DNA of 64,000 nt from the IMG/VR virus record IMGVR_UViG_3300015608_003951, positions 32,001 through 96,000 of that record. One strand, given 5' to 3'. Shown one piece after another: positions 1-62,787 of this stretch. The notes beneath the pieces are model-generated. The model made no database searches. It worked only from the letters and a program-made list of their open reading frames with translations, and had not been told where the DNA came from. Numbering within the stretch: position 1 is the first letter of the stretch; every line of letters starts with the position of its first letter. The translations under genes and the position numbers were made by a program. Source of the stretch: a virus. Taxonomy: Duplodnaviria; Caudoviricetes.

Positions 1-258
1 GGGGGCATCATCATCCCGGACACCTGCGATGAAGCAGAGCGCTTCCGAAGGGGAACCGTGCTCCGAATGGGGCACCTTACCTGCGATAGCGGCGTGAAGG
101 AGGGGGACCTCGTCGTCCTGGCCGCGCAGTCCGTGCAGTACGGGTCGCAGAAGTCCGCGCACGACGGGGCTACAAAGAACATGGGCGGGGAGGAGCACCA
201 CCTGATCAAGTGGTTCGACATCCTCTTCGTGTGTGACCCTGAGGTCGAGGTCACCTTA
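1..258 (+). CDS. groES: GroES/Cpn10-like co-chaperonin (5' truncated by window; ends at TTA)
   Basis: Frame 1 reads GGIIIPDT...G.V..GDLVV...HLIKWFDILFV, typical of Cpn10. The domain ends just before TTA 256-258, which overlaps the next ATG (TTATG). Confidence 0.8.
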
Positions 259-509
259 TGCACCTGTTCTTCGAGGCCGAGCCCGGGGTGTTGGAAGTCA
301 GGTACACCTGGCTGCCCTCCTTCATCGGCCTGAACACGCAGCTGTTGAACGAGCTGGCGGTGGAGGCTGGAAAGGTGGCCGTGGGTAGGCCTCTGGACGA
401 GGCCTTGTTCCACGAGCTTGACACTCTGGCGGTTGGGATCATCACGAAGAGGCTGGCGCACGGGGCTCTTCCGGCGCTGTTCGAGGCCTTGTTGGCCCTG
501 GAGGTCTTA
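258..509 (+). CDS. hypothetical protein (ends at TTA)
   Basis: ATG is coupled to the upstream TTA. In-frame TTA 507-509 overlaps ATG 509, and the standard-code extension is low quality. Confidence 0.65.
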
Positions 510-1066
510 TGTTCAGTCAGAAAGAGGAGAAGGCCCAGTTGCCCCGAGGCATGGGCCCCAAGATTTGCGGTGCAGCCATCGCTGACATCCTCCAGCACCG
601 AAGGGTCCTAGGCCTGGGGGTTAACGCCACGGGGGAGATCCGCTACTCCATCTACCTGCGGGAGGGAGAGGCTGTGCAACCCCTGGAAGACCTGCCTCCC
701 GGGCTGGAGTCTACGGACTTCCTGCGAAGGATTCCCCGCATGGAGGAGATCTCTGCGCTGGAGCAGAGGGCTGTCTTCAACGCGTGCAGGCTGTACGCGC
801 ACGCTGCGCAGAACTGGCTGGTTCCGTTGGCTTGGGTCGCTGTGCGGGCCCCCAAGCAGGCTAGCCCGGCGAGGCCTCATCCGCTCGAAAGGGCGGACTT
901 CGACTTCCTCGGGTACCCCGGGTACCTCGGGGACGTGAACGCGGGATCCTTGTTTCTTTTGTGCGGGACGGAGCGTGGCGAAGGTGCCATGTCCGCCACG
1001 GCGTGTTTCAAGATGCAGCTTCCGAAAAACCAGGAGGAAGAGCTGTGGCCGACCTCAGTGGAGTGA
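509..1066 (+). CDS. hypothetical protein
   Basis: 185 aa ORF in a coupled operon. Confidence 0.65.
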   Translation: MFSQKEEKAQLPRGMGPKICGAAIADILQHRRVLGLGVNATGEIRYSIYLREGEAVQPLEDLPPGLESTDFLRRIPRMEEISALEQRAVFNACRLYAHAAQNWLVPLAWVAVRAPKQASPARPHPLERADFDFLGYPGYLGDVNAGSLFLLCGTERGEGAMSATACFKMQLPKNQEEELWPTSVE

Positions 1067-1548
1067 TCACCCAGTTGAGTGAGGAGTTTTCGACCAAGGC
1101 CAACCTGGCCTTTCTTCGGGCGGAGCGTCCCTTCGCAAACGAGATCGATCTCATCTTTCGCTACAAGAACATCAACGATAGGTCCAACTGGACCGTGGCC
1201 GCGCACAACATCCTCACGTCGATGCGCAGCGCGGGCCTGAGCGGGTTCAACATCCGGGCGATCCAGGGGGAATACCGCCTCAAGGAGGATGGCACGGTCG
1301 GCGTGGGGGCGGTCCTGATGGTCCAGGGTCCTGCGGAGCACCTGCCCGCCATCTTGCAGCAGATCGCCGTCTGGGTCCGCGCTACGCCTCAGGTCAAGCG
1401 GCAGCCTGCCCGATTTGTCCAGATCACGGACGACATGAGCATCTTTCGGGTGAAGCCCAACGGAGCCGGCATCGCCCCTGGGGCTGGCCACAACCCCGTA
1501 GCGGCCATCGACCGCTACAACTACAACAAAGCGCAAGGCCTGATCTGA
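1045..1548 (+). CDS. hypothetical protein
   Basis: GTG 1045 follows AGGAGG. TGATG overlap with the next gene. Confidence 0.7.
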   Translation: MADLSGVITQLSEEFSTKANLAFLRAERPFANEIDLIFRYKNINDRSNWTVAAHNILTSMRSAGLSGFNIRAIQGEYRLKEDGTVGVGAVLMVQGPAEHLPAILQQIAVWVRATPQVKRQPARFVQITDDMSIFRVKPNGAGIAPGAGHNPVAAIDRYNYNKAQGLI

Positions 1549-2243
1549 TGACTATCCGAGACGCGATCCGACAGCGGCTTGGGACGACGGAGGTGCGTGC
1601 CTCAACCGTCAGTAAGCCCGTGGATGAGAGCAAGATCCCGGAGCGTGATAAGGAGCTCCTCGCAAAACACGCGACTGATCTTGAGAAGATGTTCGAGGTG
1701 AAGGACCGCGCCAAGTATGAGATTGAGCTCATCCTGAGCGGCACGCTCATGAAGGGGGCTCCTATCCACGGCATGGTTACGGTCTGGCAGCGGCCTAGGC
1801 ACGCCAGCGAGGGGAACCTGTCCAACCTCTACTGGTGCCCCGGGGCGTTGTCCAACAAGTCCAACTGCATGGAGCTAATCCCGGACTTCGGGAACGATAG
1901 CGTGGCTCACGTGTGTCCCAAGTGCGGGTGTGTTTGGGATGCCCGGAGCACGGTGAGCGGGCTTCAGCGGGAGCTGACCGGCGTGAAGTGGGCTCACCTC
2001 CTTGACCAGGTCTTCAACAAGGCCGGGCGATGCGCAGACCTGACGGTGAAGGTCTACCCCCGCCAGCTCCGGGCCACGGTTGCGCAGGAGATGAACAAGA
2101 ACTTCAACGGAGAGCTGCTCTCGAAGCTTGATGAGCGGATGATCAAGGCCGTCTATCGTTTCACGGACATCTTGAAGGACATGGGCAACGGCAGCTCCTT
2201 TGAGCGAAACGCGCTGTCCATGCTCAAGGCTCTGGGCGCATGA
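1548..2243 (+). CDS. hypothetical protein with Cys cluster / putative zinc ribbon
   Basis: WCPG...NCMEL...CPKCGC motif. ATGA overlap downstream. Confidence 0.65.
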   Translation: MTIRDAIRQRLGTTEVRASTVSKPVDESKIPERDKELLAKHATDLEKMFEVKDRAKYEIELILSGTLMKGAPIHGMVTVWQRPRHASEGNLSNLYWCPGALSNKSNCMELIPDFGNDSVAHVCPKCGCVWDARSTVSGLQRELTGVKWAHLLDQVFNKAGRCADLTVKVYPRQLRATVAQEMNKNFNGELLSKLDERMIKAVYRFTDILKDMGNGSSFERNALSMLKALGA

Positions 2244-60963: not shown

Positions 60964-61580
60964 TGATCACCTCCCCGCATCGATACCGGTACGCCTGGCA
61001 AAACACGACGGGTGCGCTGCCCAACAAGATTGGCAGTGACACCCTTCAACCCGGGTCACCCGCAGCCTACGTCGGATCTGAAGTCGTGTTCAGCTGGCTT
61101 CTGACTCTGCCCGTAACGGCGTCCGGCGACTACATGGACTTCTCGGGCTCCTACCCCAGCAAGTCTTTCACGCACTCTGGCACCAAGTACCTGAACCTGA
61201 TGACCTGGCGCGCCCCTCAGGAGGACAGCCCGACGGGCCAGAACAACCTGCTCTTTACGGAGCTTACGGTCTACTTCGGCTCGGACATCACGAACGGCGG
61301 GTTCCCGACCACGGACGAAGATACGATCACGCTGCACACCTTCGACAACTCCCTCGCGCACAAGGACAGCGCGCACTTCTCCGAGGCGGTGATCATCTCT
61401 GGCAGCTCCACCTGGGGCGTGATCATCCCGCCCACTGCTGCCGCGCTCAAGACCTGCCGTCTCAACGGGGGTGGGGGGGTTAACGACCGCTGTGCCCTCG
61501 CCTTGCAGATCCAGAACACCGGAGTCTCTTCCACAACTTCGGGGGTAATCCTTCTGGTGGCCAAGGCGGTTGAGCTGTTA
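60963..61580 (+). CDS. putative virion protein (ends at TTA)
   Basis: Beta-rich. TTATG junction at 61578-61582. Confidence 0.6.
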
Positions 61581-61900
61581 TGGATTCCACGGACGTGGGT
61601 CTGTTGCTGATCTGTGCCTTCGGCCTGACGGGCTTTCTTGTCTTCCTGTTCAAGCCGGGGGCGCCTGCTCCGGGTGCGGTCGCAGCCAAGGAGCCCTCGA
61701 AAGCGGACCTGGATAAGCTCCAGCAGCAGGCCGACCAGGGCGCCAAGGAGGCGAAGGATGCCCACGACACCGCGGTGCAGGACTTCGAGGACAAGGCCAA
61801 GGCCTCCGCCCCTGCGCTGGAAGACGATACCGAAAAGCTGCTAAAGTACCTCCTGGAGGCTGGCAAAGATGTACGCACACCGACTGAAAAAGATCGCTGA
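61580..61900 (+). CDS. N-terminal TM plus coiled-coil protein (i-spanin-like)
   Basis: VGLLLICAFGLTGFLVFLF followed by a helical domain. Confidence 0.5.
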   Translation: MDSTDVGLLLICAFGLTGFLVFLFKPGAPAPGAVAAKEPSKADLDKLQQQADQGAKEAKDAHDTAVQDFEDKAKASAPALEDDTEKLLKYLLEAGKDVRTPTEKDR

Positions 61901-62363
61901 AGCGGACCCGGAGGAGGGGGAGCTCTCCCCCGCTACCCTGCGAGAGAGCATCAGCGCCGGTATGCGCCGGGGTGCAGCAGCGCGCCTCGCTTACAAGCAC
62001 CCGGGGCTCTTCCTGGCCGCGAACGCCTTCCTGGGAGATACGGCAAAGACCGCTGAGCTGCGCCTTAACCTGCTGGCTGAGGAGCTCCAAAAGATGGCCC
62101 GACAGGCCACCGGCGGCTGGGAGCAGGGCAATGGCGGGAGCGCCCAGGCGTACTCCATGACCCCGAAGAGCTTGGGGATCTCGGGCGGCAACCGCCTCGG
62201 AGGCATGTCCACGTTCTCGGAGCTTGCCTCGATGTCGATGCGCCCCTCGCTGGCCAACCCTATGGGCGCCTATGGCGGGTGGAGCCAGGGCAACGACGTC
62301 AACTCCCTCATGGCCAACTACAAGAACATGGCCAACGGAGGCGGCGGTGCGATCGGTTGGTTA
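61869..62363 (+). CDS. hypothetical Gly/Met-rich protein with K-x-A motifs (ends at TTA)
   Basis: GGAGG SD. TTA 62361-62363 gives a 17 nt overlap with the next gene. Confidence 0.5.
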
Positions 62364-62787
62364 TGCGCTTGGCGTGCTGCTCTACAGCCCGTTGGCGCAC
62401 GGCCAGGTGCAACCGATCCCTCCTGGGGAGGATAAGATCGTCATCGTACAGAAGGGGGACCCTGCTCCCTTCTCTGGCGCACTCTACGAGAGCAGCACTG
62501 CTCTGCGTTGGGCTAACTACCTTCAGCAGTACAAGCTGAGGCTGAAGACAGACGTGGAGCTGCAACAGCAGCTGGACGCTGTGGAGCTCCAGAGGCAGAC
62601 CCAAGCCTTGCAACTCAAGCTTAACCTGAACCTGCAAGCTGTCGCGGAGCAGCAGCTCCGGATTCAGGGGCTAGAAAAGCAGCTCCAAACCCCCGAGCCC
62701 TTCTACAAGACGGTGTGGTTTGGAGCTGTGGCGGGCGTAGTCAGCACGGCGCTCTTTGGCGGCTTCGTGCTGCTCGTCCACCGGTTA
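62347..62787 (+). CDS. signal peptide, coiled coil and C-terminal TM protein (spanin-like; ends at TTA)
   Basis: GTG 62347 follows GGAGG. Ends TM-HR-TTA exactly at the convergent gene's stop. Confidence 0.6.

Follow-up and report, generated by a model that had tools for sequence, protein, structure and literature searches.

UUA as a probable fourth stop codon in a large metagenomic phage and its relatives

We analysed a 64,000-nucleotide stretch of a metagenomic phage genome (hereafter the window), bases 32001-96000 of the single 162,306-bp, 62% GC virus contig IMGVR_UViG_3300015608_003951 of IMG/VR, in which the codon TTA (UUA in mRNA) stands at the ends of genes and is missing from their interiors. 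We consider it probable, from comparisons of sequence, that UUA acts in this phage as a fourth translation stop beside UAA, UAG and UGA, and most likely this stop is common to a clade of related phages of ~160-170 kb from several metagenome samples. A preliminary description of the window had proposed such a sense-to-stop change, and the proposal is borne out: the sequence behind TTA has the character of sequence behind true stops, the TTA of the over-long capsid genes of three relatives falls at the conserved C-terminus, orthologous genes interchange TTA with canonical stops, and the TTA ends belong to one clade.

The virus is a novel large phage. DNA and protein searches of GenBank phages gave no nucleotide match and almost no protein matches, an IMG/VR peptide-pattern search with its Ig-like protein gave no match, and a homolog search with a 424-amino-acid open reading frame (ORF) returned the same phage only. 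Among the recognisable phage genes are those for GroES, a sigma-like factor, an SNF2 helicase, an HNH protein, a family-A DNA polymerase, ThyA, DHFR and a peptidyl-tRNA hydrolase of the PTH2 family. The IMG/VR record is a permuted, incomplete circle; in other assemblies a circle of ~167-169 kb is closed, and the ends of the record are joined through ~5 kb of small ORFs. No host can be assigned from the GTDB contigs with relatives, which sit in metagenome-assembled genome bins of conflicting taxonomy (Myxococcales, Deltaproteobacteria, Anaerolineales, Edaphobacter and others) and are probably mis-binned phage contigs.

TTA codons at the ends of genes

A codon log-odds model was trained on long ORFs with a high GC content at third codon positions, and a codon-usage gene caller was rerun with TTA added as a stop. 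All 24 TTA codons named in the preliminary description (21 on the plus and three on the minus strand) are present and in frame with the upstream ORF, and the new gene call recovered exactly these 24 ends in the window, where TTA ends 23 of the 65 genes lying wholly inside as well as the GroES gene that starts before it. By the same call TTA ends 42 of 194 genes genome-wide, about one in five. When genes are called with the standard code, 20 of 38 in-frame TTA codons (53%) fall in the last 12 codons, where 4.3% would be expected; the next most end-biased codon, AGA, has 15.6% there. Gene bodies lack the codon, as had been claimed: position-specific base frequencies predict 140 internal occurrences genome-wide and 54 in the window. 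For other rare A/T-rich codons the observed use is 0.38-1.25 of that predicted in the same way. Out of frame, genes contain TTA 430 times, and no ORF of 1000-2830 codons has it in frame. One such TTA-free ORF, of 2804 codons, fills genome positions 118355-126769 (L013).

Two tests of what follows the codon separate a stop from a rare sense codon near gene ends. At sites preceded by 40 strongly coding codons, a further 40 open coding codons follow an in-frame TTA in one case of 30, and this lone exception, with an ATG two codons on, marks two genes in one frame. The corresponding counts are 1/14 for TAA, 2/13 for TAG and 3/56 for TGA, the level expected from same-frame neighbour genes, so that these three triplets still act as stops, as had been stated. 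After rare sense codons, coding continues at 27/56 sites for ATA, 16/41 for AGA, 87/144 for CTA and 31/64 for TCA. The coding score drops below zero right after nearly every TTA and is often positive in another frame. Counted from TTA to the following canonical stop, the tails have a median length of 19 codons and a maximum of 308 (n = 42), no different from the tails behind true stops (n = 152; Mann-Whitney p = 0.40). Tails of ten codons or fewer make up 45% after TTA versus 34% after true stops (p = 0.20), and back-up stops are not enriched downstream of TTA.

Reading TTA as a stop also clears the long overlaps between genes and leaves tidy junctions with gaps of -1 or +1, in agreement with the earlier account. 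Ten TTATG junctions have a Shine-Dalgarno sequence upstream, the same usage as that of TGATG elsewhere in the genome. The Cpn10 domain of GroES ends at residue 98 and its TTA is codon 108. TTA ends are found on both strands and in every region, among them the genes of nucleotide metabolism and replication and the arm of small ORFs. As a stop TTA (42 genes) is about as common as TAA (30 genes), which fits neutral interchange between two equally AT-rich stops.

Two other explanations of the end sites were tried. Frameshifting at TTATG was rejected, as the sites are non-slippery and the junction is present at only about a quarter of TTA ends, and TTAA or TTAG as a +1 stop was rejected, as all four bases are found after TTA.

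Homologous gene ends in related phages

The comparison with relatives gives the strongest support for the fourth-stop reading. The probable major capsid gene lies at genome positions 9164-10288, and its end reads ...SAL(TTA) TAG. More than 320 capsid homologs were found, of which 120 are listed; most of those 120 have a length of ~373 amino acids, and the aligned ones end in an aromatic residue (F, Y or W). Among 63 IMG/VR relatives in which the gene end could be located, 61 have a canonical stop at this same position. Three relatives (P0013, P0015 and P0017; 55-57% identical, GC 0.66) have the capsid gene called at 520-561 amino acids. The sole TTA of each of these ORFs aligns, at codon 373-377, with the conserved C-terminus, and 148-186 further codons of junk, rich in Arg, Ser and Pro, follow it. 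Since the relatives' loci contain no ortholog of gene 10359-10982, an overlap of the capsid tails with a conserved gene is not demonstrable.

TTA and canonical stops are exchanged at orthologous ends. The capsid gene ends in TTA-TAG in this phage, in TTA in L016-L018 and in TGA in L126; the gene upstream of it ends in TTA in this phage, L017 and L126 and in TGA in L018. For gene 2226-3440 the stop is TGA in this phage and TTA in L016; for gene 5927-6853 it is TTA in this phage, L016, L017 and L018 alike. The capsid tree places all eight TTA-ended genes in a single clade of 16 members (100% support), where they are mixed with genes that have canonical ends, so that at least four changes are required; the sister clade, with 39 genes, has no TTA end.

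Elsewhere in the family the codon has its ordinary use or is absent. In family members at GC 0.53, TTA is an internal sense codon after which coding continues at 24/28 and 14/19 sites, and two have TTA at Leu positions within the capsid gene. In the high-GC members that lie outside the clade, TTA is not found in frame at all. Loss of TTA in high-GC members and its return as a gene end in the clade match codon capture, in which a codon disappears and then acquires a new meaning.

Inteins (Hint_2 plus LAGLIDADG) were seen in a 961-amino-acid gene near the capsid gene of one relative (L016 4040-6925) and in the SNF2 helicase of another, P0128.

A tRNA cognate to UUA, a PTH2 gene and a gated leader

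ARAGORN finds only two tRNA genes in the whole phage genome, and one of them has the anticodon UAA, which matches UUA. This tRNA folds well, with a 5-nucleotide variable loop, G73, U37 and the mismatches C31-C39 and U50-C64. It lacks two marks of a bacterial tRNA-Leu, the long variable arm of a type II tRNA and the discriminator A73, and so is not of the Leu type. An exact 14-mer of its anticodon arm gave 74 chance matches in IMG/VR and no tRNA with a TAA/TTA anticodon, and the tRNAs of five distant relatives come to one tRNA-Met only. The second phage tRNA, at window positions 11797-11871, has the anticodon CAT and an initiator-like acceptor stem (CGCGGGG...) but lacks the three G-C pairs of the anticodon stem, and may be a Met or an Ile2 tRNA.

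The tRNA(UAA) gene lies 470 nucleotides downstream of the PTH2 gene, whose product is 57% identical to that of the relative L174. PTH2 is present in this phage and in L174 and absent from the five distant, mostly complete relatives. L173 and L174, the closest relatives by helicase (60-64% identity), each have TTA at a gene end and carry a tRNA(CUA) in the slot of tRNA(UAA); the L174 homolog of the 101-amino-acid cassette gene diverges after ...GLKDRVK. A metagenome scan with the PTH2 pair gave 41 loci, ~27 of them with a tRNA(CUA) within ~50-400 nucleotides 3' of the PTH2 gene, at GC 0.32-0.68 (cassette loci are labelled L174 and L186-L226). TAG still ends genes in the PTH2-tRNA(CUA) loci. PTH2 thus stands beside a tRNA cognate to a gene-ending codon, and here the pair is tRNA(UAA) and TTA ends. 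The low-GC loci L211 and L213 have 81 and 74 in-frame TTA codons, about half of them followed by coding sequence; since they carry the PTH2 cassette yet use TTA as a common sense codon, the cassette alone does not make UUA a stop.

The cassette is preceded by a putative leader minigene of 18 codons, in which a TTA codon, the gate, stands before an arrest-type RGPP motif (Table 1). In L174 the leader reads MHH-TAG-LHRSRGPPVAL...-stop, and L186 and L188 likewise have TAG and then ...RGPP. The gate covaries with the tRNA anticodon (TTA with tRNA(UAA) here, TAG with tRNA(CUA) in L174), which lends independent support to the view that the phage treats TTA as a stop. A local fold predicts a hairpin between the leader's last codons and the next ribosome-binding site; the whole 131-nucleotide leader stretch folds no better than shuffled sequence (z = -0.5), so the hairpin is a local prediction. 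Six other PTH2 genes (L208, L211, L213, L214, L221 and L223) have TAG at codon 3-5, and no gate codon is present at that place in the PTH2 gene of this phage or its closest homologs.

We suggest that tRNA(UAA) is more likely a private suppressor of the new stop, serving a read-through switch, than a terminator. It would suppress the UUA stop at the gate of the leader; read-through would then carry the ribosome into a stall at RGPP, a motif with an established role in arrest (PMC10951233, PMC12992588), and the stall may expose the ribosome-binding site that serves the cassette genes. As in the RAPP/RGPP arrest leaders of the ApdA, ApdP and SecM class (PMC10951233, PMC12992588), RGPP stands just before the leader stop, with a predicted hairpin over the next ribosome-binding site; unlike in them, the putative arrest motif would be reached only when the cassette tRNA reads through the gate (TTA here, TAG in L174). 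We found no published account of a PTH2-plus-suppressor-tRNA cassette with a gated leader.

Table 1. TTA gene ends and cassette features of the window (window positions; TTA sites rest on an in-frame check of the letters and on the gene call with TTA as a stop; tails are counted to the next canonical stop; aa, amino acids)
Feature	Positions	Strand	Remarks
TTA of GroES (Cpn10) gene	256..258	+	TTATG, next ATG at 258; 24 non-coding codons to TGA
TTA of 83-aa gene 258-509	507..509	+	TTATG junction, GGAGG ribosome-binding site upstream; tail 33 codons
TTA of 59-aa weak short ORF	2936..2938	+	complement of TAA stop of convergent gene 2936-4576 (-)
TTA of 378-aa gene 4910-6046	4910..4912	-	TTATG; tail 45 codons, negative coding score
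TTA between 252-aa pentapeptide-repeat gene and 217-aa same-frame gene	8055..8057	-	TTA GCC ATG
TTA of 142-aa gene 8887-9315	9313..9315	+	next ATG 9320; tail 51 codons
TTA of 89-aa gene 14072-14341	14072..14074	-	tail 56 codons
TTA of 1244-aa gene 15101-18835	18833..18835	+	next ATG 18837
TTA of 1025-aa gene 21029-24106	24104..24106	+	next ATG 24108
TTA of 131-aa gene 25400-25795	25793..25795	+	
TTA of sigma-factor-like gene 25838-26581	26579..26581	+	
TTA of gene 29425-30189	30187..30189	+	TTATG; 203 out-of-frame codons to next canonical stop
TTA of Ig-like-domain gene 30189-31055	31053..31055	+	TTATG
TTA of 76-aa gene 34957-35187	35185..35187	+	tail 308 codons
TTA of 84-aa gene 35198-35452	35450..35452	+	tail 78 codons
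Putative leader minigene, MSTLTPML-TTA-IHLPRGPPL-TAG, 18 codons	36677..36733	+	TTA gate before RGPP arrest-type motif
Predicted hairpin, leader's last codons with ribosome-binding site CCAGGAG of gene 36773	36726..36772	+	local fold
PTH2-family peptidyl-tRNA hydrolase gene	37062..37382	+	TGA end; Pfam PF01981, E 9.3e-10, 39 bits
TTA of 101-aa cassette gene 36773-37078	37076..37078	+	14 nucleotides inside PTH2 gene
TTA of 134-aa cassette gene 37396-37800	37798..37800	+	
tRNA, anticodon UAA (cognate UUA), 74 nucleotides	37856..37929	+	ARAGORN; Rfam tRNA 51 bits
TTA of SNF2 helicase gene 37950-40238	40236..40238	+	
TTA of 327-aa gene 43597-44580	44578..44580	+	tail 19 codons
TTA of HNH-domain gene 44637-45698	45696..45698	+	
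TTA of 767-aa gene 58660-60963	60961..60963	+	TTATGA; next gene from 60963
TTA of 205-aa gene 60963-61580	61578..61580	+	TTATG
TTA of 164-aa gene 61869-62363	62361..62363	+	tail 23 codons
TTA of 137-aa gene 62374-62787	62785..62787	+	complement of TAA stop of convergent gene 62785-63621 (-)

At the convergent pairs 2936-2938 and 62785-62787, one trinucleotide ends genes on both strands, as TTA on the plus and TAA on the minus strand. Same-frame neighbour genes parted by TTA, one or two codons and ATG occur at 7398-8813 (-) in the window, at 109402-110769 (+) in the genome, and in the relatives L016 (6951-9008) and L017 (6977-9007); standard gene callers fuse these pairs into ORFs of 464, 483, 685 and 676 amino acids. 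At the record's left end is an operon of thymidylate synthase, DHFR and NUDIX genes (genome 311-1677, L010; also L229 10001-11855), in which the end of the DHFR gene reads TTA CCA TGA. A run of 35 N at genome 15152-15186 lies within gene 13900-15606.

How UUA might be read, and what the finding means

Searches of the phage with the release-factor domains PF00472 and PF03462 (RF-1 and PCRF) gave no match even at E 10, and the ~5 kb missing from the record, taken from other assemblies, holds genes without a Pfam match and no release factor. Because genes of the replication module and the small-ORF arm, presumed early, end in TTA, the terminating activity would be needed early, and termination may depend on a factor present from the start of infection. 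By analogy, the likeliest agent would be a host release factor of bacterial type that reads the second codon base less strictly; we infer it from the lack of a phage release factor, the TTA ends of presumed-early genes, and the TTA ends of relatives without a tRNA(UAA). The preliminary description had listed a divergent release factor, a terminator tRNA, and stalling with peptidyl-tRNA hydrolysis. A phage-encoded release factor is absent, and a terminator tRNA is disfavoured.

Several observations weigh against UUA as a stop, or against its simplest form. TTA ends are ~2.5 times more frequent in a central block of the genome than elsewhere, a bias that would not be expected from neutral change at the level of the host alone. 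At 2936 and 62785, two of the 24 window sites, the TTA is at the same time the TAA stop of a convergent minus-strand gene, read on the other strand. Depletion alone is not diagnostic, for internal TTA is also missing from high-GC family members that have no TTA ends. Moreover, an efficient phage tRNA cognate to UUA would read through the 42 gene ends.

One alternative is that UUA is simply not decoded, either in a host without tRNA-Leu(UAA) or because the phage removes that tRNA, and that ribosomes stalled with an empty A site are rescued by the phage PTH2 or by an ArfB-type hydrolase of the host. The TTA-free high-GC relatives fit such an unassigned-codon stage, as do the lack of a phage release factor and the presence of PTH2 here and in L174 but not in the five distant relatives. 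We nevertheless consider it unlikely. The same PTH2 cassette occurs in L211 and L213, in which TTA is an ordinary sense codon; rescue would be a slow way to release a capsid protein that is made in very many copies; and back-up stops show no excess behind TTA. PTH2 enzymes, besides, act on free peptidyl-tRNA, and this is their recognised substrate. Quite unlikely, in our judgement, is a form of the fourth-stop reading in which the phage lineage itself would impose the extra stop on a standard-code host without any release factor, the private tRNA(UAA) overriding it at the regulatory gate; UUA decoding might, for example, be removed or outcompeted and a phage enzyme might free chains from ribosomes paused at UUA.

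That tRNA(UAA) is itself the terminator, reading UUA so that the chain is then released and PTH2 hydrolyses the product, seems very unlikely. In its favour, the tRNA matches the odd codon, is un-Leu-like in its short variable loop and G73, and lies 470 nucleotides from PTH2. Against this, L173 and L174 have TTA gene ends with tRNA(CUA) at the corresponding place, and the contigs L016-L018 with TTA-ended capsid genes, which are partial, have no tRNA. The cassette tRNA, further, normally reads a stop codon in loci where TAG still ends genes, and the gate covaries with the anticodon, as it would for a suppressor.

TTA is the rarest codon of many high-GC genomes, and it could be a very rare Leu codon of the standard code, clustered at gene ends where these overlap A/T-richer initiation regions, with the tails translated. 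Nineteen of the 42 tails are of ten codons or fewer, and four TTAs directly precede a canonical stop. We regard this reading, on the sequence evidence, as largely refuted and extremely improbable: the tails match those behind true stops in length (p = 0.40), some run to 148-308 codons with negative coding scores and overlap other genes, capsid proteins would end in 148-186 residues of junk, the end bias is unique to TTA among rare codons, and orthologs have canonical stops at the TTA position. An artefact of sequencing or assembly, such as systematic miscalling of TAA as TTA, is excluded for practical purposes because independent ENA assemblies and Logan contigs of eight metagenome samples contain the same phage at nine loci, which are 99.6-100% identical and keep every TTA site that they span, and divergent relatives behave alike at TTA. 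Sequencing runs with the phage come from wastewater, activated sludge and freshwater and belong to at least four studies; none of those listed is an RNA run.

Full-text literature searches found no sense-to-stop case in a phage or bacterium. The preliminary description's statement to that effect stands, but table 23 is not the sole precedent. UUA has become a stop in labyrinthulean (Thraustochytrium) mitochondria (NCBI table 23), in peDinoflagellate plastids, and in green-algal mitochondria of Marsupiomonadales and Pseudoscourfieldia, and there an RF2 substituted at Ser204, or a modified mtRF1a, is credited with termination (PMC12574857). The phage resembles these organelles in that the same Leu codon appears to have become a stop, is internally absent and stands at the stop positions of homologs, in a translation system of bacterial type that keeps UAA, UAG and UGA. 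It differs in that the organelles have small genomes and their own, visibly altered release factor, whereas the phage clade has genomes of ~167 kb without a release-factor gene; the phage additionally carries a tRNA cognate to the new stop. In Streptomyces, the bldA gene encodes a dedicated, normal Leu tRNA(UAA) that controls a few regulatory genes containing UUA, a codon that there means Leu and is nearly unused. The phage shares with it a high GC content, near disuse of UUA and a dedicated tRNA(UAA), but its UUA codons stand at gene ends, and its tRNA has G73 and no long variable arm of the Leu type. Recoded phages described so far read TAG or TGA as an amino acid with the help of phage suppressor tRNAs (bioRxiv 10.1101/2021.08.26.457843). 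Like them, this lineage appears to have left the standard code and has a tRNA cognate to a stop codon; the direction is the opposite, from sense to stop, and no stop is read as sense inside its genes, in keeping with the earlier remark that phage recoding has so far run from stop to sense.

The sense-to-stop change has so far been published only for mitochondria and plastids, and here it concerns large double-stranded DNA phages and a bacterial translation system. If UUA is indeed a stop, either an uncultured wastewater bacterium has an overlooked code with four stops, or phages can create a stop codon; should the phage itself impose it, this would be a transferable, virus-encoded way of doing so. 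Standard gene callers would then misannotate about one in five genes of such phages, with false fusions, long overlaps and junk-tailed capsids, and the change would be invisible to code-inference tools that assign amino acids only. The covariation of gate codon and private tRNA would, in turn, represent a natural read-through switch that is directly testable.

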